Below, piece by piece: positions 5,572 through 34,415 of a stretch of DNA of 64,000 nt. The number at the start of each line of letters is the position of its first letter. The stretch's first letter is position 1. Under the pieces are notes generated by a model. The model was not told the origin of the DNA. It was given only the letters and a program-made list of their open reading frames with translations, and did not search any database. The DNA is taken from NCBI GenBank assembly GCA_963665815.1, contig OY762463.1, forward strand, positions 1,536,001 through 1,600,000, in the 5' to 3' direction. The stretch is from Candidatus Cloacimonadales bacterium. GTDB taxonomy: Bacteria > Cloacimonadota > Cloacimonadia > Cloacimonadales > JAIOQZ01. A program made the translations under genes and the position numbers.

Positions 5572-6715
5572 TTTCCTCCTGCTATGCTTTCAGCTTGCGG
5601 CTGTTGATAATACAAAATACGTTGATTATCAGTTAATTAATGCTGATTCCATTGCAATTATGAAGAAAGAAATACTGTATTTATATGAGAACGTTCATTT
5701 TATCTACGATGACAATGAATTCCATGCTGATCGTGCAGTAATTCACGAAGTCCAAAAAACAGTAAAACTTTTTGGTAATGTAAAAATTGAAAACGACTCT
5801 CTTCTTATCTATTCAAATGATGCTTTTTATTCCAAAAACAACAGAGTTGTAAGATTTAACGGTGATATAAAAGCATGGTCCGATTCACTCTATTTCGAGT
5901 GTATTCATGGTGATTATAACTACAACACAGATTTCATTTCATTGAAAGATAAAGTCTACCTGAAAGAAACTCATGCTGATTCGACAATTAGAACATATAA
6001 TGCAGATTTAGTAAACTTCGACAGAAAAAACGGGAAATTATTCAGTTCCGGCAATATAAAAGCTTTTGATGAGAAAGAAAACATTTATATGTCCGGAGGA
6101 GAATTGAATTATGATCTGAATGAGAAGTATGGTTTCCTTAAGATACAACCTCATGTTTATGTTCCGGGAAAAGACTCAATGTCTATCACTGCCAGAAAAC
6201 TTGAATGTATGAATGATTTCAAGAAAATAGTAGCAACTTTTGACGTTGAAACAGCTTCTGCCGACTATTCCATAAAAAGTGATTTTCTTATATATATGAC
6301 TGATACAGAGGAAGCAGTATTCCTTGGAGATCCTCGTTTTGTATCAGATTTTGCTGATGGGAAAGCTGATGAATTCCATATTATGTTTAAAGAAAGAGAA
6401 CTACAGTCAGCCAGATTTACATCAAACTGCAAGGTGAATTTTGCAGAAAAGGAAAACAATCCGAAAGATAACTGGATAACAAGTGAAAAAATGGAATTTT
6501 TCTTCGATGAAGATAACAATATTACTAACTATATAGCAGAAAATAATGTTAAGTCATACTTCAAGCAAATGAAGACAGATGAAAAAGATTATACGGAAAA
6601 TTCTGCAACCGGGGACTACATTGAAGTTTTTCTGAATGACAATAATGAGATGGAATCTATTATTTATAAAGGCAATGTCAAAGGAACTTACAGTTTTGAA
6701 GACAAAAACAATTGA
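5549..6715 (+). CDS. lptA: LptA/OstA-family LPS transport protein with repeated jellyroll units
   Basis: Signal peptide; repeated ADxA/GNV OstA-like units; position before lptB. Confidence 0.75.
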   Translation: MKKMLIFSFLLLCFQLAAVDNTKYVDYQLINADSIAIMKKEILYLYENVHFIYDDNEFHADRAVIHEVQKTVKLFGNVKIENDSLLIYSNDAFYSKNNRVVRFNGDIKAWSDSLYFECIHGDYNYNTDFISLKDKVYLKETHADSTIRTYNADLVNFDRKNGKLFSSGNIKAFDEKENIYMSGGELNYDLNEKYGFLKIQPHVYVPGKDSMSITARKLECMNDFKKIVATFDVETASADYSIKSDFLIYMTDTEEAVFLGDPRFVSDFADGKADEFHIMFKERELQSARFTSNCKVNFAEKENNPKDNWITSEKMEFFFDEDNNITNYIAENNVKSYFKQMKTDEKDYTENSATGDYIEVFLNDNNEMESIIYKGNVKGTYSFEDKNN

Positions 6716-6740
6716 CAATCAACAATGAAAATGGTATTTT
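6712..6740 (+). promoter_or_regulatory. Candidate sigma70-type promoter for lptB-rpoN
   Basis: TTGACA-17 nt-TATTTT with a TG extension. Confidence 0.5.
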
Positions 6741-6774
6741 ATATATCGTATTTGAAATGTGAAAGTGGTAAAAA

Positions 6775-7509
6775 ATGAGAAATAAAGTTCGAGCCGAAAG
6801 TTTAGTAAAATATTATGGCAACAGAAAAGTCCTTAGCAATGTCTGCCTGGATATCGAACAGGGTGAAATCGTCGGAATTTTAGGTCCCAATGGTGCCGGA
6901 AAATCAACAACTTTTTATACAATCCTTGGGCTTACAAAAGCTACATCAGGAGATGTTTACTTTAATGACCAGAACATTACAAATATTCCAATGTACAAAA
7001 GAGCTCAACTTGGTATAGGATACCTTGCTCAAGCTCCGTCAATATTTCATAAACTTACAGTAGAGCAGAATATACTTGCAATTCTGGAGACAACCAGCAC
7101 TCCCAAGAAAGAGAGAAAACAAAAGCTTGAAGAATATCTTTCTGAGCTGAACCTTACAAAACTTGCTAAACAGAAAGCATACACTCTTTCCGGAGGAGAA
7201 CGACGTAAACTTGAGATAACAAGATCTCTTGTTACCTCTCCCTCATTCCTGCTGATGGATGAACCCTTTGCAGGGGTAGATCCGCTTGCTGTTGCTGATA
7301 TTCAGGATATAATTGTGAAGCTGAAAGAAAGAAATATCGGCATACTTATAACCGATCACAACGTTCTGGAAACTCTTAAGATTACAGAACGAGCATATAT
7401 AATTTTTAATGGAGAGATTCTGCTCTCCGGAACGTCGGAAGAATTAGTAAACAATGAAAAAGCCAGAGAAGTGTATCTTGGAGATCGCTTCCTGAACCAT
7501 GTTTTCTGA
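6775..7509 (+). CDS. lptB: LPS export ABC ATPase
   Basis: GPNGAGKST, LSGGERR, DEPFAGVDP, ITDHNV. Confidence 0.97.
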   Translation: MRNKVRAESLVKYYGNRKVLSNVCLDIEQGEIVGILGPNGAGKSTTFYTILGLTKATSGDVYFNDQNITNIPMYKRAQLGIGYLAQAPSIFHKLTVEQNILAILETTSTPKKERKQKLEEYLSELNLTKLAKQKAYTLSGGERRKLEITRSLVTSPSFLLMDEPFAGVDPLAVADIQDIIVKLKERNIGILITDHNVLETLKITERAYIIFNGEILLSGTSEELVNNEKAREVYLGDRFLNHVF

Positions 7510-7517
7510 GAGTCAAT

Positions 7518-8966
7518 ATGTTAAAACTAAATCAGAATTTATCGCAAAAACAAGTTCAGAGACTTGAACTGAGACCTCAAATGCTTCAGTCCCTGCACCT
7601 GTTATCTCTTCCGGTCATGGAACTGGAAACTCACCTTAAGGAAGAATTGGTCAGTAATCCCATGTTGGAGATGAACGAACCTTCAGAGTCAGACAGTAAT
7701 GAAGCTTCTTCCGAAGAATCAAAAGAGAATGATACAGAAGATTCCTACGAAGATGAACTGCAAAAAACGATTGAAGAAGCAAACGAACTGAGTGAAATTT
7801 TGGATCAGTGGAATGATTATCATTCTGATTCCGGTTATGGTGCAAGCAGTGATGAGGATAAACCTAATCCTGAGCAATATCTGAAAGCGGCAGAGGATTT
7901 CAAAGAAGATTTCACAGAACAGCTTTTAGCTTTTGATCTGCCGGACAATGAATACGAGTATGCTTCTGAGCTGATTGACAGCTGCAATGCCCATGGATTC
8001 CTGAATAATCCCGAAGATATTCTTAACATTGCTGTTGAATATGATATATCCGAAGAACGGGCAGAAGAGATTCATCAGCTTATTCTTCATATTCAGCCTA
8101 AAGGTATAACTGCCCGTAATATAGAAGAATGCCTGATAGCTCAACTGTCAGAGAATCAGCTTAATGACCAGCTACTTGTAAATGTTATCAGCAATGACTT
8201 AAATTCTCTTCTGCACAGAAAATATAATCAGATTGCATCAAAATATAATTGCTCATTTAATGAAGTTATAGAATGCAAGGAAATTATATCAAAGCTTGAT
8301 CCTAAACCCGGAATGCGTCTTGTGCAGTCTGAAATAAGTTATATTGTTCCGGACATTATAATAAAGAAAATCGATAAGGAATATGAACTGATAATCAATG
8401 ACAGTTCAACTCCAAACATACGTATAAACAGAAATTACAATAAAATAATTAAATCTTTGAATAAAGATAGAAATGCTATTGGATATGTTCGCAATAAAAT
8501 AAATTCTGCGAAATTCCTTATAAGAGCATTATTCATGAGAAACCGTACCCTGGAAAGAGTTACAAGGGCAATCATTAACCATCAGAAGAACTTCTTTTAT
8601 AATGAGACAGGTATTCTCGAGCCAATGACATATGCTGTTATTGCAGAAGAACTTCAGGTTAACGAATCAACCATTTCAAGAGTAGTACGAACAAAATATG
8701 CGGATACTCCCTTTGGGCTTATGTGCCTGAAAGAGTTTTTCACATCATCTGCCGGAAAAGATAAAAACTATGATTCTGTATCCAGACAGATGGTAGAGAA
8801 AAACATAAGGGAATTAGTTGAAAATGAAGATAGAAAGAAACCCATCAGTGACCAGAATATTGCTAATATACTTAAAGAGAGAGGCATCAGTGTTTCACGA
8901 CGAGTTATAGCAAAGTACAGAGAGGAGATGGGGATTCTTAACAGTAGACTAAGGAGAAAAATGTGA
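7518..8966 (+). CDS. rpoN: RNA polymerase sigma-54 factor
   Basis: Gln/Leu-rich region I; NESTISR HTH; RpoN box SRRVIAKYRE. Confidence 0.97.
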   Translation: MLKLNQNLSQKQVQRLELRPQMLQSLHLLSLPVMELETHLKEELVSNPMLEMNEPSESDSNEASSEESKENDTEDSYEDELQKTIEEANELSEILDQWNDYHSDSGYGASSDEDKPNPEQYLKAAEDFKEDFTEQLLAFDLPDNEYEYASELIDSCNAHGFLNNPEDILNIAVEYDISEERAEEIHQLILHIQPKGITARNIEECLIAQLSENQLNDQLLVNVISNDLNSLLHRKYNQIASKYNCSFNEVIECKEIISKLDPKPGMRLVQSEISYIVPDIIIKKIDKEYELIINDSSTPNIRINRNYNKIIKSLNKDRNAIGYVRNKINSAKFLIRALFMRNRTLERVTRAIINHQKNFFYNETGILEPMTYAVIAEELQVNESTISRVVRTKYADTPFGLMCLKEFFTSSAGKDKNYDSVSRQMVEKNIRELVENEDRKKPISDQNIANILKERGISVSRRVIAKYREEMGILNSRLRRKM

Positions 8967-26854: not shown

Positions 26855-29473
26855 CTATTCGTCTTTCTCTTTCTCCCAATCTTCCTTAATTACTTCTTTA
26901 AAATCTTCCTTGAGATCTTTCTTTTCAGCACTGTCTTTATCTTTCAATTCAGAGTCGCTATCTTTCAGTTTCTCAGCTTCAGATGCTTTCAGACTATCTT
27001 GAATTGCTGCTTCTCTAGCTTCTTCCCACTGCACTATCAGAGGTAATCGATCCAGAGATAGAAATTTTGTTCCATCATAAAATTTATTTATTTCTGTTAC
27101 AAATTCAGTGAATCTGTGGTTAGCCTTAATACTGTCAAAAACGGCCCTTGCCTTTATAGTATCATTCATTACTCTATACAGGCATAATCCTTTTGTATAC
27201 AAAATTCTGGCTTTTTCATCACCGTATGTATTTTCCTCAATTTCTTCAAGTATTGCTACACAACTATCCGGATCATCATACATTTTTACCAAGGCCTCTT
27301 CGTACAATATCTTCCTGTTTTTATCCTCAATAGTTGCAAACTCAATTGTCTCACCACTCATCATATTCTGAATTGCATTTGTATATTTACTGCCAGGGTA
27401 CTGAGAACTCATTAGATTTACAACAGAATCGGTTCTAACCGTATCAAGAATAACATTCTTGTATAGCCACCCTTTAAGGAAGTATGAGAATGGGATAAAC
27501 TCTTTTTCATATAAGCTGATAGCATTTATATACTGATCCTTGATAAGAGTTAATGAATCTATTTTTGCTATGTATATTGAATCCTGCAGCTTTTTAATCA
27601 GTTTAATCTCATTTCTCATGGAATCGATTATTGTTGAAACCGAATCCACTCTGGCAATCATCACAGTATCAATATTCACTCGATTAATCTCAATCAAACT
27701 GTCTACCTGAGATATACTGTCCCTCAATCCGGCTATTCGGTTCACAATATGAATTTGAGATTCTTCAAGCTGTTGTCTCTCAGTTTCCAGAGAATCAACA
27801 CTTTCAGCGGTATTTTCATTACCATTCATTTTCTGCATACTGAGAATATCATTTTCTATTACTCTGATTTTCTGCTTGTTTCCTGTAGAATCAGCAGCAA
27901 CTAAGGAATCAATCTTATTCCTGCGGTCAATAATCATAGAATCTATTGCATTTGCAGCTTTCTGCTTTTTAGCAGCCTGTTCCAGGTTAGCCTGAAGAGA
28001 CTTCTTAGCAGCATTGATTGAGTCCTGCCTGCTGATCAACTCGTTCAGTATTCTGTTAATATCCTCTAAATCGTTCTTATAAGTGCTGTCTTTTTTTACT
28101 GCTAAAGTATCAATAAAGGAATAGAGGCTATCTTTTGTATTTTCTGTTGCTTCAATTGCAATACTTAATGAATCAATTCGCAGATAACTCATTGTATCTT
28201 TTTGAGCTATGAATTCTGATATTTTTGTCTTCAGGGTATCCAGTTTAAGTTTATTCTGATCGTAAAGGAACAGGATGTTGTCATATACTTTCAATGCTGA
28301 ATCCGGAGCTTCCAGAACATCAAAATAATATTCTGCCAGCTTGAATTGTTCTTCTACCAGGTCTTCCAGAGATATGGTTCTTTCACTGTCTCTGAACTGT
28401 AGAATCTGAGAAGCAATTGCACTTCTTGCTTTAGCAAACTTATACAGCTCAAACGAACTGTTCACCTTATTATAAGCTTTCATCGCTTCTTCATAATTCA
28501 AAAGAATAAAAAAGTTAAGCTCTGCTTTGTAGAAATAAGCCATTGAATTGATTTCACCGGATCTATTGGTTTTTATTACATTTTCCAATATTTCACCAGC
28601 CAGTTCTGTTTCATCAGTATACATTAATGCTCTGGCTTTCAGAATCTTTGCCTGTGATACTTTTTCTGGATCAATTTCTTTCTTTATCAGGTAATCTGCC
28701 GTTTTCAGAACTTCATTATAATTCTCAAGTTCAAGATTATTTACAGCTTTTCTGTACATCGCATCAAACTTGATTGATTTCTTTGTTCTTTTCTTCAAAA
28801 GTTCATCAAGCACATTAATTGACTTCACATAATCTTTCTCATTATAGAATGACTCACTGAGCAGAATATAGCTTTCGTTGATATAATCTGATTTTGGATA
28901 ATTATCCAGCAGCTTTCTCAGATATGCTCTTGATTGTAGAATATTCTCTTCTTCCATCTGATAATCTGCTGCAAGAAACAACACTTCAGGGTGATACTTC
29001 TTCAGGTTATCATCAAGCAGATATTCCTTAATCTTCTTGAATGCATCTGATTTATTATCCAACTCATATTCAATTTTGATAATATATATTTTCGCTTCAG
29101 GTACAAACTCGCTTTTAGGATAATATTGGATAAGGTCTTCAAATTTACTCTTGCCATCCACCAGTTTTCTATGTGATTTCTGGTAATACAAACACTTGGC
29201 AAGAAGAAAAAGTGCATCATCTGCTCTGGAACTTTTTTTCAGCTCTGTCAGAATTATTCCGCATTTCTTCATACTGTCATTGTACTTCCTTACTGCTTCA
29301 GAATTTGGTCTGTTATTTCGCAGAGGTATATCCTGAGCTTCCTCAAAGTACTTTACAGCGTTGTAATATGTGTTATAATACGCCATTCTGACGCAGCCTG
29401 CTGTTAACACTAAAATCAGCAGACCAATAATAATTCTTACTCTAGTTCCGGTCATATAATGCACTTTCTCCAA
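26855..29473 (-). CDS. TPR-repeat lipoprotein, PorW/SprE-like, with a long coiled-coil insert
   Basis: Lipobox LTAGC (start probably the second Met); YYNTYYNA; YPKS/YPGSKY TPR motifs; DDALFLLAK. Confidence 0.75.
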   Translation of the reverse strand: MEKVHYMTGTRVRIIIGLLILVLTAGCVRMAYYNTYYNAVKYFEEAQDIPLRNNRPNSEAVRKYNDSMKKCGIILTELKKSSRADDALFLLAKCLYYQKSHRKLVDGKSKFEDLIQYYPKSEFVPEAKIYIIKIEYELDNKSDAFKKIKEYLLDDNLKKYHPEVLFLAADYQMEEENILQSRAYLRKLLDNYPKSDYINESYILLSESFYNEKDYVKSINVLDELLKKRTKKSIKFDAMYRKAVNNLELENYNEVLKTADYLIKKEIDPEKVSQAKILKARALMYTDETELAGEILENVIKTNRSGEINSMAYFYKAELNFFILLNYEEAMKAYNKVNSSFELYKFAKARSAIASQILQFRDSERTISLEDLVEEQFKLAEYYFDVLEAPDSALKVYDNILFLYDQNKLKLDTLKTKISEFIAQKDTMSYLRIDSLSIAIEATENTKDSLYSFIDTLAVKKDSTYKNDLEDINRILNELISRQDSINAAKKSLQANLEQAAKKQKAANAIDSMIIDRRNKIDSLVAADSTGNKQKIRVIENDILSMQKMNGNENTAESVDSLETERQQLEESQIHIVNRIAGLRDSISQVDSLIEINRVNIDTVMIARVDSVSTIIDSMRNEIKLIKKLQDSIYIAKIDSLTLIKDQYINAISLYEKEFIPFSYFLKGWLYKNVILDTVRTDSVVNLMSSQYPGSKYTNAIQNMMSGETIEFATIEDKNRKILYEEALVKMYDDPDSCVAILEEIEENTYGDEKARILYTKGLCLYRVMNDTIKARAVFDSIKANHRFTEFVTEINKFYDGTKFLSLDRLPLIVQWEEAREAAIQDSLKASEAEKLKDSDSELKDKDSAEKKDLKEDFKEVIKEDWEKEKDE

Positions 29474-30997
29474 TTAATCGAGTTTACCTACTGTGTTCTC
29501 TACTTCTTCAAGTATTTCACAAGATTTTACAAGTCTTTTCATTTCTGTATGATCAGGATACAATGGCCTGTCTATTTCAAGAAAATCTACATATTTTCTG
29601 ATTACTTCCTTAGCTTTAGTTACTCCGGTTCCAAAGTTATATTCTCTGAAATCAAGTGCTTGAGCTGCTGCCATAAACTCAATACCAATAATACCGTACG
29701 CATTATCAAGAATCTGGAAATTCTTTATTGCAGTATTCATTCCCATTGAAACAAAGTCTTCCTGATCCGCTGCAGCTGGGATTGACTGAATGCAGGCAGG
29801 AGTACTGAGTATTTTCTGCTCTACAATCTGTGTATCGGCAGTATACTGACTGAGCATAAGTCCTGAGAACATACCGGCACCCTTTGTTAGAAAAGCCGGA
29901 AGTCCAACATTCAATGCAGGATGGTTCAGTCTGTTCATTCTTCTCTCAGAAAGAACACAAACCATTGTAACAGCCATTCCAATCATATCCATTGGTAATG
30001 AAACAGGTGTACCCTGAAAGTTTGCTCCGGAAAGCTGAAGTTCTTCATCAGGGAAGAATATTGGGTTGTCCCCAACTCCATTCAATTCGATCTCAACCTG
30101 TGACTTTGCATAGGCGAGTGCATCATGTGCCGCACCTATTATCTGAGGAGTGGATCTCATTGAATATGCATCCTGAACTTTACATTTAATTTTACTGAGA
30201 AAAAGGTCTCCGCCTTCAACACATTTTCTGATAGCTGCCGCAGATCTTTGAGCTCCGGCAAAACCTCTAACCTCGTGAATACGCTTATCATAAGGTTTCA
30301 TATTGGCTTTTAATGCTTCAAGAGACATGGCACAGGCAATTTCAGCTTGTTTAAGAAGATTATTGGCATCGTGAAGGAATATAGCACTCATTGCTGTGAG
30401 AACATTAGAACCATTAATTGTTGCAAGACCATCCCGTGCCATAAGTCCCGGGATCTCAATTCCGGCTTTCTCCAGTGCTGTTTTACCATCGTAAAGCTCA
30501 CCTTCATAGTATGCCTGTCCTTCCCCCATCATAAGCAAAGCTATTTGTGACATAGGAGCAAGGTCACCACAGGCACCAACGGAACCTTTCTGGCAAACAT
30601 AAGGAGTTACACCTTTATTAAGCATCTCTACAAGTGTAAGAGTAATTTCTGGTCTGCATCCGGAGTTTCCGTGAGCATGAACATTTATTCTTCCGACCAT
30701 AGCACCACGTACATACTCAATTGGTGCAGGATCTCCGATACCGGCAGCATGATTATAAATCAGGTACTTCTGAAACTCTTTAACCTGATCATCATCAAGA
30801 ACGACTTCAGAAAATTCACCAATTCCGGTATTTACTCCATACATGATTTCTTTAGCTTCTATCTTTTTCTCCAGCATAGCTCTGCATTTTTTTATTCGCT
30901 CCAGAGCTTCAGGACAAAGTTCCACTTTTTCATTATGTCTGGCAATCCTGACAAGTTTCTCTACTGTTAAACCTGAACCATTAAGTACTATAGCCAT
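29474..30997 (-). CDS. MIO-dependent aromatic amino acid ammonia-lyase family protein with atypical ACG triad
   Basis: YGVNTG, GSVGACGDLAP, QDAYSMR, ANFQG, QEDFVSMG. Confidence 0.9.
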   Translation of the reverse strand: MAIVLNGSGLTVEKLVRIARHNEKVELCPEALERIKKCRAMLEKKIEAKEIMYGVNTGIGEFSEVVLDDDQVKEFQKYLIYNHAAGIGDPAPIEYVRGAMVGRINVHAHGNSGCRPEITLTLVEMLNKGVTPYVCQKGSVGACGDLAPMSQIALLMMGEGQAYYEGELYDGKTALEKAGIEIPGLMARDGLATINGSNVLTAMSAIFLHDANNLLKQAEIACAMSLEALKANMKPYDKRIHEVRGFAGAQRSAAAIRKCVEGGDLFLSKIKCKVQDAYSMRSTPQIIGAAHDALAYAKSQVEIELNGVGDNPIFFPDEELQLSGANFQGTPVSLPMDMIGMAVTMVCVLSERRMNRLNHPALNVGLPAFLTKGAGMFSGLMLSQYTADTQIVEQKILSTPACIQSIPAAADQEDFVSMGMNTAIKNFQILDNAYGIIGIEFMAAAQALDFREYNFGTGVTKAKEVIRKYVDFLEIDRPLYPDHTEMKRLVKSCEILEEVENTVGKLD

Positions 30998-31008
30998 TTT
31001 TCCTCCGC

Positions 31009-32595
31009 TTATAGTTTTTCGTGTAATAATTTAATAGTCTTCTCTATATCAGGATAAGCCACACGGTCTTTATCCCAGAATGATACATCATTATTTCTTA
31101 GTTTCATCAATAAATTATATGAAGATCCACTCAAGATTTCCTCAAGAGATTTCTCAGATAAATCATCTTCGCATTTCTGTCTTAACTCAAGAGCCTGACA
31201 GGCTACTATCAATTCAATTGCCAGTATTCTTCTTACATTTTCAAGAATCTCTCTTGATTGACGAGCCGCAATTGTTCCCATTGATACATGATCTTCAACA
31301 TCTTCACTGGTTGGAATTGTATCTACGCTTGCAGGATGAGCAATAACTTTGTTTTCGGATGTTAATGCCGCAGCAGTATATTGCATAATCATTACACCTG
31401 AATTAAGTCCCGGATCCAGAGATAGCATTGATGGAAGTCCGTTATTCAGAAATTCTGAAGTCATTTTAAAAATTCTTCGTTCTGAGATATTACCCAGTTC
31501 AGTTAATGCTATCTTAAGAAAATCACTGTATAATGCAACAGGTTCTCCATGGAAATTACCACCTGAATAAAACTTCTGGTCATTCTCAATATCATGAAAA
31601 ATCAGTGGATTATCTGTTACCGCATTTGATTCTCTTTCAAACACATCATGGCACATATCAATTGTATCTTTCACGGCACCTGCAACCTGAGGAAAGCATC
31701 TGAGTGAATAACTGTCCTGTACTTCTCCCGGTCTGGAATCAACAAGCATACTGCCTTTTCTGTATTCATTTATTAAATCAGCAATCTCAAGCTGACCCTT
31801 CTGATTTCTTATCTCGTGTATTTTTCTGAAGTAGGCATGAGAAACACCTTTCAGCGCTTCGAGGGAAGCACAGAATATTTTAACTGAGTTGTGAAGAAGT
31901 ATCTCTGCTTCATGAAGTGATATCGCAGCAATTGCAGTCATCACGTTTGTACCGTTATTAAGTGCAAGACCTTCCTTAGCATCCAGAACAACTCTTTCAA
32001 TCCCGGCTTTTTTCATTGCTTCTTTACCTGAGATTGTCTTGATCTCAGTGTTATCTCTATCAAAATTCTCTTTAATTATTACTCTTCCGCTTTCTTCATC
32101 AACATCATCCGTTTCATCTTTACAGAGAACAAGCATAATATGAGATATCGGAGCCAGATCACCGCTTGCTCCCACGGACCCTTTTTCAGGAACTGCCGGA
32201 TGCACACCTTTATTAAGCATATCAATAAGTGTCTGTAGTGTACTTAATCTTATTCCTGAAAAACCTCTGGATAGAGAGTTAATTCTGAGCAGCATAATTG
32301 CTCTTACGATTTGCACAGGGAGATAGTTTCCTACACCTGTTGAATGGCTGATAATCAGATTTCTCTGCAATTTCTTGAGTTGCTCACGTGCAATTTTACG
32401 GTTCTTCAACGAGCCGAATCCGGTATTTATACCGTAAACAACCTGATCATTATTTACAATTCGTTCAATCTCTTCCCTGCATGTATTAATTCTGCTTTTT
32501 GCTGAATCTGATAAAACTACATTTGCCCTTTGTAATGATATTTCCCAAATTTGTTCAAGGGTTAAATTTGATCCGTCAATTACTATGTTCTTCAT
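31009..32595 (-). CDS. hutH: Histidine ammonia-lyase
   Basis: YGINTGFG; LIISH (His-specific); GSVGASGDLAP; QDSYSLR; GGNFHG; EDHVSMG. Confidence 0.9.
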   Translation of the reverse strand: MKNIVIDGSNLTLEQIWEISLQRANVVLSDSAKSRINTCREEIERIVNNDQVVYGINTGFGSLKNRKIAREQLKKLQRNLIISHSTGVGNYLPVQIVRAIMLLRINSLSRGFSGIRLSTLQTLIDMLNKGVHPAVPEKGSVGASGDLAPISHIMLVLCKDETDDVDEESGRVIIKENFDRDNTEIKTISGKEAMKKAGIERVVLDAKEGLALNNGTNVMTAIAAISLHEAEILLHNSVKIFCASLEALKGVSHAYFRKIHEIRNQKGQLEIADLINEYRKGSMLVDSRPGEVQDSYSLRCFPQVAGAVKDTIDMCHDVFERESNAVTDNPLIFHDIENDQKFYSGGNFHGEPVALYSDFLKIALTELGNISERRIFKMTSEFLNNGLPSMLSLDPGLNSGVMIMQYTAAALTSENKVIAHPASVDTIPTSEDVEDHVSMGTIAARQSREILENVRRILAIELIVACQALELRQKCEDDLSEKSLEEILSGSSYNLLMKLRNNDVSFWDKDRVAYPDIEKTIKLLHEKL

Positions 32596-33086: not shown

Positions 33087-34415
33087 TCAATCTGATTCGT
33101 AATTATCAAAAATCAACTCACCGTCAACAATTGAATAAGAAACTTTTTCTCTCTGCTCAACAATATTTACTGATTTCTTCAGAATCCGCAGATATGTTCC
33201 CGGGAAAATCTTTTTAAAAGCTACAATGTGCTTCGGAGCTTCATCGCTTGCAAGCAATGCCTTGTTAATTGACTCCTCGAGCTTTTCTTCATAATCCTGA
33301 ATCAGTTTCTCTACTTTGCTTATCTTATCCGAATTTTCTCCCGGAGATTCCTTTAACTCACTGAGTTTCTTGGATAAAAGCATCATCCTTTCTTTAATAA
33401 AAGGACTTATTGTTATTTCAACTTCTGTTCCTGCTGCAGTGGAATTGCCGATTACAGCTGCTTCGATGTTTTCTCCAGCCTGTACAATACCACCAATTAT
33501 ACAACCCGTTTCCGGGTCTCCTGTTACTGCTTTTTCAGCAACAAGTTTGCAGAAGTTCACTTTGTCCGAAAAGTTTATATTACCTGCAGAATAAATATTT
33601 GAATGATCTGCAGATTGAAAAGTAATTGATTCAGAGGAATATACTCCACCTGATCTACAATTAAGAATGTCACCCTTAACATCTACTTTTCTTTCACATT
33701 GAATATGAGCATCATTAATGTCTCCGAAAACAGTCAATCTACCGGTAAGTTCAATCACAATCTTTTCTTTAATATTACCATTGACTGTCAGATTCCCATT
33801 CATGGAAAAATTGTCGTACTTTAAATCAAGATCATGATGTATAACAAAATTTGAGTATACATTCACTTTGCCATCTGCATCAATATATGGATAGCCGTCA
33901 TCATCAGCAATAAGTTGATGACTGTCAGCTGAGTAGGACACGCCTTCTCCAATGAACTGACTTATGAGGTCATCATCGTTGCTTTCAGTAACAATTTCTT
34001 TTCCCCAGATATCAATACCATTTTTAGAGAATCTTGTTATATAAATATGTGCCAGAGCTTCACCTCTGGAGACACACTCATAATCCTGAAGTTTTGCAAA
34101 GTCATCCTCAAAACCAGCAACATCAATGCTCAATTTCTCATCAAAGAGAAGTTGAAATTCTACCTGTGGTTTAACCGGTGCTTCGCCTTCTGCAATAAGG
34201 AAAGGAACATCAAACTCCTTCGGAATATACTTCATATTCGGGCTCAGGATTTCTTTGTCTATTCCTGCTTCATTCAATAACTGCACAATTTCAGTTTCAT
34301 CTATAAGATGATCTCTTTTGAATAAAGTCATATATGCTTCAGATCCATGATTCCTGATCTCAACCTTTATGAGACCTGATTCACTTAAAAATTCTTTTTC
34401 CATAGTACTATCCAT
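33087..34415 (-). CDS. FapA/DUF342-family protein
   Basis: IAEGEAPV, GIDIWGKEI, beta-helix repeats (GNLTVNGNI), IIGG, IFPGT. Confidence 0.85.
   Translation of the reverse strand: MDSTMEKEFLSESGLIKVEIRNHGSEAYMTLFKRDHLIDETEIVQLLNEAGIDKEILSPNMKYIPKEFDVPFLIAEGEAPVKPQVEFQLLFDEKLSIDVAGFEDDFAKLQDYECVSRGEALAHIYITRFSKNGIDIWGKEIVTESNDDDLISQFIGEGVSYSADSHQLIADDDGYPYIDADGKVNVYSNFVIHHDLDLKYDNFSMNGNLTVNGNIKEKIVIELTGRLTVFGDINDAHIQCERKVDVKGDILNCRSGGVYSSESITFQSADHSNIYSAGNINFSDKVNFCKLVAEKAVTGDPETGCIIGGIVQAGENIEAAVIGNSTAAGTEVEITISPFIKERMMLLSKKLSELKESPGENSDKISKVEKLIQDYEEKLEESINKALLASDEAPKHIVAFKKIFPGTYLRILKKSVNIVEQREKVSYSIVDGELIFDNYESD

Follow-up and report, generated by a model that had tools for sequence, protein, structure and literature searches.

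A natural Ala-Cys-Gly tripeptide at the cofactor position in a slowly evolving branch of the histidine ammonia-lyase family

Background

Can an ammonia-lyase that depends on a methylidene-imidazolone (MIO) cofactor arise in nature from an Ala-Cys-Gly tripeptide, and which reaction would such an enzyme catalyse? These questions are raised by a gene in a 64,000-nucleotide stretch of DNA, referred to here as the window, from a Candidatus Cloacimonadales bacterium (assembly GCA_963665815.1, contig OY762463.1, positions 1,536,001 to 1,600,000). The open reading frame (ORF) at 29474..30997 on the minus strand reads without interruption into a Lyase_aromatic (PF00221) protein of 507 amino acids, P0001, which contains KGSVGACGDLAPM and carries GSVGACGDLAP as its MIO-region motif. 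Its upstream tandem partner (31009..32595, minus strand) encodes a canonical histidine ammonia-lyase (HAL), HutH. PMC3903478 and PMC11432326 name a 'strictly conserved' Ala-Ser-Gly as the source of MIO, and an S143A variant is more than 1000-fold less active according to PMC3903478. The literature searched, which lacked most subscription journals, yielded no account of Ala-Cys-Gly as a natural MIO precursor.

The original prediction, made from the letters of the window, had proposed both that the MIO of P0001 is derived from cysteine and that its substrate is probably not simply histidine. The comparisons presented here support the former indirectly, by way of a Ser/Cys interchange at an otherwise invariant site, and do not support the latter. 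P0001 is probably a working MIO-dependent ammonia-lyase of a distinct, slowly evolving HAL branch, most likely converting L-histidine to trans-urocanate and ammonia.

Authenticity of the cysteine codon

The triad Ala142-Cys143-Gly144 is encoded by the codons GCC TGT GGT at 30574-30566 on the minus strand, where the bases read gtt ggt gcc tgt ggt gac, and the predicted motif agrees exactly with both the translation and these bases. The triad was placed at the MIO-tripeptide position by HMMER alignment to the Pseudomonas putida HAL (1gkm), with which P0001 shares its residue numbering, gap-free, over residues 9-216. The position of the triad and its GSVG..GDLAP flanks are conserved, with Ala-Cys-Gly standing in place of Ala-Ser-Gly.

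Only a single-base difference separates TGT from the serine codon TCT, and a sequencing or assembly error would thus suffice to produce the cysteine. The chance of this is negligible. No differing letters were found across window positions 30300-30850 in three Logan assemblies of three separately assembled runs (word depths 7-15), although these runs derive from a single sample, from which this genome may itself have been assembled, and are not independent of it. Independent support for the codon is provided by relatives of P0001, since GACGD is also read in P0002-P0004, which stem from other records and are 97-99% identical to P0001, and in P0005-P0007 (85-86% identical). Furthermore, TGY occupies codon 143 in 49 of 81 genomes across phyla. 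The serine to be expected after such an error was seen neither in the three assemblies nor in the 97-99% identical homologs P0002-P0004, all of which carry cysteine, and sequencing error was rejected as the source of Cys143.

Exchange of serine and cysteine at residue 143

Relatives of P0001 were gathered in a genome scan with one genome per species, from which the best 80 of 357 loci (78-98% identity to P0001) were combined with the window to give 81 loci, and in a word-indexed protein search, of which the best 120 of 8000 scored candidates (82-100% identical to P0001) were examined. Residue 143 is a cysteine in 49 of the 81 loci and a serine in 32, while the triad is ACG in 79 and ASG in 41 of the 120 database matches. 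Twenty further sequences fetched from the phylum of the window, nineteen from a group 67-70% identical to P0001 together with one from genome G173 (83% identical), comprise sixteen ACG and four ASG forms. Cysteine is the majority state in each of these sets, in agreement with the proposal that it is natural.

The 49 cysteine codons (TGY) are divided between TGC (25) and TGT (24), while serine is encoded by both of its codon families, TCN in 22 loci (TCA 10, TCC 9, TCG 3) and AGY in ten (AGC 5, AGT 5). The canonical HutH partners encoded in eighteen of the same loci all incorporate serine at the triad (18/18). On a maximum-likelihood tree of 83 rows, computed with IQ-TREE after masking of site 143, 19 changes between serine and cysteine are required, at least 11 of which are forced by branches with values of 95 or more in the SH-like approximate likelihood ratio test (SH-aLRT). 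Close sister pairs are split at codon 143, for example L071 (AGC) from L085 (TGT) and L066 (AGT) from L028 (TGT), and in several pairs of very near sisters the Ser/Cys state is the sole difference. When TCN, TGY and AGY are treated as three codon classes, the minimum is 19 steps under either weighting of a TCN-to-AGY change, as one step or as two, so that single-base steps to or from TGY can account for every switch. A cysteine root is one step cheaper than a serine root, which is weak evidence.

The surroundings of this exchangeable residue do not vary, with residues 137-142 and 144-146 being 100% invariant in the 81 sequences. Among 506 columns compared over 18 phylogenetically independent pairs, none co-varied convincingly with the Ser/Cys state; the best, position 468 (7:0), was not significant over this number of columns. 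Because serine and cysteine flip freely inside an invariant motif, without compensation elsewhere, we infer that MIO is formed from Cys143, and the interchange fits a residue whose oxygen or sulfur atom is discarded as MIO forms. Ala142-Cys143-Gly144 would be converted to MIO autocatalytically: its backbone would cyclise in the manner of enzymes with Ala-Ser-Gly, and residue 143 would lose its side chain as H2S, not H2O, to yield the same methylidene-imidazolone. The mature Cys-encoded and Ser-encoded proteins would then be chemically identical. An engineered S143C histidase of P. putida (Langer, Lieber and Retey, Biochemistry 1994), which has Ala-Cys-Gly at the MIO position as in P0001, reportedly matures to a fully active enzyme, and such maturation implies that H2S is lost where the serine enzyme loses H2O. 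That protein is a laboratory mutant of a canonical HAL, whereas in the relatives of P0001 cysteine is the natural majority state and alternates with serine.

Assignment to the HAL subfamily

Both tandem proteins match PF00221 over its full length, P0001 with 535.3 bits (E 1.6e-160, model positions 1-465 of 466) and HutH with 588 bits (1-454 of 466). P0001 also scores above the cut-off of the NCBIfam HAL subfamily model NF006871 (533.7 bits; cut-off 524), and its best solved relatives are HALs, namely 7tqr (E 5.6e-92) and 1gkm (E 6.5e-83). Y53, H83, N195, Q275, Y278, R281, F327, M381 and E413 occur in all 81 sequences, with Q275, Y278, R281, F327, E413 and M381 corresponding to P. putida Q277, Y280, R283, F329, E414 and M382. 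Mutagenesis described in PMC11432326 has shown these HAL residues to be essential or important. The uninterrupted ORF, the full-length domain match and the strong purifying selection described below bear out the earlier view that the gene is not decaying.

The likeness to HutH (EC 4.3.1.3), as represented by the P. putida HAL (1b8f/1gkm), the 'probable histidine ammonia-lyase' 7tqr and the G. kaustophilus HAL (PMC11432326), extends to the fold family, length, catalytic and binding residues, location of the MIO tripeptide at 142-144, residue numbering to approximately 216 and association of the gene with hutU. P0001 differs from these enzymes in having Cys143 for Ser, N-H for S-H, I59 for F, Q328 for H, F415 for H and S282 for C, among other changes. 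The codons for Tyr81-Asn82-His83, after which the type is here termed Y-N-H, lie at 30749..30757 on the minus strand, as derived from the ORF start at 30997 and the alignment to the tandem HutH. The BLASTP alignment with this partner (38% identity over 515 columns) contains each of the differences that had been listed from inspection, with LIYNHAAG, NTGIG, SGANFQG, DQEDFVSMG and GACGD in P0001 opposite LIISHSTG, NTGFG, SGGNFHG, DVEDHVSMG and GASGD in HutH.

Two other types of enzyme were considered. Ergothionase (6s7j, E 2.8e-61 to P0001) belongs to the same superfamily, and ergothionase and the histidine-betaine trimethylammonia-lyases convert histidine derivatives to urocanate-type products (bioRxiv 10.1101/2025.08.13.670108 and 10.64898/2026.04.22.720169). 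Lyases of this type are without the MIO tripeptide, whereas the Y-N-H sequences retain an invariant G-A-[CS]-G-D (A142, G144, D145), as expected for a primary-amine substrate, and the G-A-C-G-D of P0001 rules out an ergothionase-type, MIO-less lyase. P0001 does not match the 2,3-aminomutases of the TAM or PAM type, as all three aminomutase equivalog models score it below their cut-offs (TIGR03832, 359.2 against 501 bits; TIGR04475, 339.2 against 800; TIGR04473, 150.8 against 1250). Among the representative family members compared, P0168, P0192 and P0204 (V---GYL) and P0258 (VGY---L) have no MIO tripeptide and altered NF.G motifs, and are probably ergothionase or trimethylammonia-lyase-like enzymes. 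On these comparisons P0001 is assigned to the HAL subfamily as a separate branch, which misses the S-H motif, the hutH equivalog cut-off and the textbook Ala-Ser-Gly.

Membership and distribution of the Y-N-H clade

The clade can be recognised by the signature Y-N-H, NTGIG, GANFQG and QEDFV, with YNH, NTGIG, ANFQG and QEDFV all being present in each of the 120 best database matches. In an exhaustive search against representatives clustered at 50% identity, the nearest other clusters were P0121 and P0122, at 59-60% identity to P0001, followed by clusters at 47% or less. In a FastTree phylogeny of 232 sequences the 81 Y-N-H sequences and P0122 form one set with a support of 99, the successive sisters of which are the Y-S-H sequences P0121, P0127 and P0145 (ACG) and P0124 (ASG). 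The clade is monophyletic. The original prediction had anticipated a GACGD clade with a conserved N-H pair; N-H does define such a clade, but GACGD does not, because serine and cysteine alternate inside it and ACG is also found in three S-H representatives. The triads of 133 full-length representatives comprise 111 ASG, ten SSG, six ACG and one TSG, with five being without a triad, four of which (P0168, P0192, P0204 and P0258) have an ergothionase-like gap in its place. Three of the six ACG representatives (P0202, P0211 and P0217) are ordinary HALs of the S-H / NFHG type, and natural cysteine is therefore sporadic in the family as a whole, while it is common in the Y-N-H branch.

The carriers among the best 80 loci include Cloacimonadales, Bacteroidales and other Bacteroidota, Zixibacteria, Aminicenantes, Acidobacteriota, Krumholzibacteria, Neomarinimicrobiota (Fidelibacterota), Ignavibacteria, Phycisphaerales, Bdellovibrionales, bins labelled as Clostridia and seven Thermoplasmatota archaea. 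The source names of the best 120 database matches likewise include Zixibacteria, Krumholzibacteriota, Acidobacteriota, Bacteroidota, WOR-3 and Aminicenantes. Within the phylum of the window the Y-N-H type is found in 40 of 151 sampled genomes. The Y-N-H proteins of one family of this phylum (f4) are only 67-70% identical to P0001; they retain YNH, NTGIG and QEDFV, as well as GANFQG with the exception of loci L101 and L103. Six loci in bins labelled Clostridia, Acidobacteriota and Aminicenantes (L022, L025, L040, L058, L059 and L081) share one common gene neighbourhood, consisting of a Ser/Thr kinase with TPR repeats, a DAO oxidoreductase, HutH, the Y-N-H lyase, ApbE and Rnf/Nqr subunits. Their lyases cluster together, and some of the taxonomic labels are probably wrong.

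Histidine utilisation genes in carrier genomes

P0001 and HutH are the only two Lyase_aromatic members in the genome of the window, a single contig of 3.96 Mb, elsewhere in which hutU, hutI and ftcD are encoded. Of the 80 carrier genomes, the first 50 were examined for family members and urocanase. The Y-N-H type is the only Lyase_aromatic match in 21 of these, while 26 encode a second full-length copy in the canonical score range (589-678 bits) and three are odd cases, with two low-range copies in G022, a fragment in G035 and a canonical copy broken by stops in G034. In the last, a Bacteroidales metagenome-assembled genome (MAG), the HutH gene adjacent to the Y-N-H gene (L044, ~6400-7900; G034:C1:55871-57064) is interrupted by many TGA, TAA and TAG codons, while hutU is retained and the Y-N-H gene reads intact.

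Of the 50 carrier genomes 46 encode urocanase, among them all 21 in which the Y-N-H type stands alone. Two of these 21 are G002, a complete Thermoplasmatales chromosome, and G001, a Zixibacteria genome that has a 4.46-Mb contig, and both carry the cysteine form as their sole family member together with hutU. A urocanase must be supplied with urocanate, and the Y-N-H clade is most simply read as a histidase. In four of the seven Thermoplasmatota loci (L060, L075, L079 and L083) hutU directly adjoins the Y-N-H gene. The retained HAL residues, the urocanase of the 21 sole-copy genomes and these four archaeal loci all argue against the earlier suggestion that the substrate is probably not simply histidine, and histidine is the substrate that we infer for P0001. 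Its product urocanate would feed the HutU-HutI-FtcD pathway alongside that of the canonical HutH.

A histidyl-tRNA synthetase (HisRS) gene is found upstream in 23 of the 81 loci (Bacteroidota-type), and a canonical HutH is encoded in the same locus in 19. All-against-all clustering of the 972 ORFs in the 81 loci yielded no cross-lineage family beyond canonical HutH, HisRS and hutU, with HisRS being confined to Bacteroidales and hutU to archaea, and the remaining genes that recur nearby have housekeeping functions and are specific to their lineages. A conserved accessory operon around the Y-N-H gene was rejected on this basis.

Sequence conservation

The rate of divergence of the two types was compared in 18 loci encoding both (153 pairs). 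The Y-N-H proteins have a median identity of 83% (minimum 78%), while that of the adjacent canonical HutH proteins of the same pairs is 47% (minimum 41%), and the Y-N-H type is thus far the slower-evolving of the two. Similarly, the HutU of the window genome is 36-42% identical to those of Thermoplasmatota, in comparison with ~80-82% for the Y-N-H protein. Across the 81 sequences, 199 of the 507 columns do not vary at all, and conservation reaches 95% or more in 297. The Y-N-H gene is under strong purifying selection.

The GC content at third codon positions (GC3) of the gene tracks that of its flanks (r = 0.97, slope 1.1, range 0.22-0.84) in the 72 loci left after exclusion of nine with fewer than three flanking ORFs of at least 200 amino acids, and the masked-site tree groups the sequences mostly by phylum. 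Recent horizontal transfer or bin contamination as the origin of the ~80% identity between phyla was rejected on the basis of this fit and this grouping. The Thermoplasmatota sequences nest among bacteria, and an old transfer into archaea is therefore likely.

Alternative functions of the Y-N-H clade

Several observations weigh against a plain histidase. The hutH equivalog model TIGR01225 scores P0001 at 506.8 bits, below its cut-off of 539.15, which the tandem HutH exceeds with 569.6 bits. Asn82 stands where the S-H substrate-switch motif of HAL, described in PMC11432326, has its serine, with His83 retained, and N-H replaces S-H in P0001 and in each of the 120 top matches. Sixteen positions are fixed differently in the clade and in 129 canonical sequences, and ten of these lie within six residues of a catalytic residue, where 3.1 would be expected; positions 82 and 328 helped to define the canonical comparison group, and the fair count is thus eight of fourteen. 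Given this crowding of fixed differences near catalytic residues, the Y-N-H pocket may be tuned differently from that of canonical HAL. No characterised member of the clade was found in the literature searches or among the source names, which are automatic annotations. The tandem canonical partners belong to three separate clades (Bacteroidota, Aminicenantes-type and Cloacimonadota), the common ancestor of which spans 131 of the 232 tips of the tree, and in family f4 the Y-N-H gene lies upstream of canonical HutH in 10/10 fetched pairs, opposite to the order in the window. Y-N-H lyase and HutH are consequently found as a pair repeatedly, across at least four lineages and with either gene first. 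The ORFs of the reversed pairs (L093, L094, L096, L097, L103, L104, L106, L107, L108 and L110) often overlap or nearly touch. That both types are kept side by side, and that 26 of the 50 genomes have a second copy in the canonical range, suggests that they are not simply redundant. Furthermore, a canonical copy could have been missed in some of the 21 sole-copy genomes where the MAG is incomplete, although these are too many to dismiss in this way.

The substituted switch motif, the substitutions beside catalytic residues, the low equivalog score and the maintained tandem arrangement are what would be expected if the clade were a MIO enzyme with another substrate or reaction beside a true histidase. 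Such an enzyme could be a lyase or a 2,3-aminomutase, with methylated or thiolated histidine, an ester or amide of histidine, or another amino acid as its substrate. In the Phycisphaerales genome G004, and likewise in G040, hutU adjoins the canonical copy and not the Y-N-H copy, and P. fluorescens offers a precedent, with two family members, hutH1 and hutH2, in one histidine-utilisation locus, one of unclear role, and hutH1 not needed for growth on histidine (PMC8034625). In many genomes, however, the Y-N-H copy is the sole family member, unlike in P. fluorescens, and urocanase is kept in every one of the sole-copy genomes; hutU adjoins the gene in four archaeal loci, and the residues H83 and E413, to which the recognition of histidine and catalysis are tied, do not vary in the clade. 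In the 81 loci no accessory gene, such as one for a transporter or methyltransferase, is found repeatedly near the Y-N-H gene across lineages, and the aminomutase models TIGR03832 and TIGR04475 remain far under their cut-offs. Another substrate or reaction is accordingly considered unlikely, but it is a serious alternative. Still less credible is that Cys143 is not converted, so that the cysteine forms would be dead or would use their thiol, as in a regulatory or binding protein, and only the serine forms would be enzymes. The strict conservation of Ala-Ser-Gly described in PMC3903478 would favour this; yet the two forms are interleaved through the tree with nothing else changing, both keep all catalytic residues and the invariant flanks within 137-146, and cysteine forms serve as the only family member in the hutU-bearing G001 and G002, which makes an unconverted cysteine very improbable. 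With the histidase reading preferred, a minor chance is retained that the clade differs from canonical HAL in substrate, kinetics or partnership, on account of the N-H motif, the clustered clade-specific differences, the repeated pairing and the P. fluorescens precedent. In the boldest and rather doubtful form of this idea, the clade would be a functionally distinct MIO enzyme and not a redundant histidase. It would either act on a histidine-related substrate with a new natural specificity or reaction, or depend on HutH or some other conserved protein as an obligatory partner, as in a mixed oligomer, and its cysteine-derived MIO would be the first natural maturation by loss of H2S. This improbable reading would take the near-frozen sequence (~80% between bacterial phyla and archaea) and the pairing in two orders as its signs.

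The tandem locus and its flanking genes

The HutH of the window, a protein of 528 amino acids, has the canonical ASG, S-H, NTGFG, GGNFHG and EDHVS motifs. Its stop codon (TAA, 31011-31009) is separated from the ATG of P0001 at 30997 by an intergenic spacer of only 11 nt (30998..31008, minus strand), in which a GGAGG Shine-Dalgarno-like motif (31006-31002) lies four bases ahead of that ATG. The shortness of this spacer and the GGAGG before the P0001 start make it probable that the two genes are co-transcribed, and a scan restricted to consensus matches found no terminator-like site between them. Window positions 30609-30637 give a second 29-base match ~1.4-1.9 kb away on the same assembly contigs, which is presumably the homologous stretch in the tandem HutH, a short patch of near-identical DNA between paralogs of 38% identity.

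Downstream of the pair, at 26855-29473 on the minus strand, an 872 amino acid TPR/YfiO-like lipoprotein with a long acidic, Lys/Glu-rich tail is encoded by an ORF that starts one base past the P0001 stop codon. On the upstream side a FapA-domain protein is encoded at 33087-34415 on the minus strand. Neither gene recurs beside this lyase in other phyla.

Conclusions

The expected chemistry of the enzyme is unchanged by the cysteine, and the finding is a solid but moderate one. A broad HAL branch with Ala-Cys-Gly as its majority state departs from the 'strictly conserved' Ala-Ser-Gly. The N-H switch motif and the clade-specific changes near catalytic residues may leave room for altered specificity or kinetics, and the conservation of the Y-N-H type, about twice that of the adjacent HutH and far above that of HutU, hints at an unexplained constraint. 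Annotation rules or motif filters that demand ASG would wrongly mark these genes as inactive. The switching between serine codon families, from TCN through TGY to AGY, is a clear example of passage through a functional intermediate, and the repeated exchange of cysteine and serine amounts to a natural experiment, which indicates that the heteroatom of residue 143 is irrelevant to the mature enzyme.

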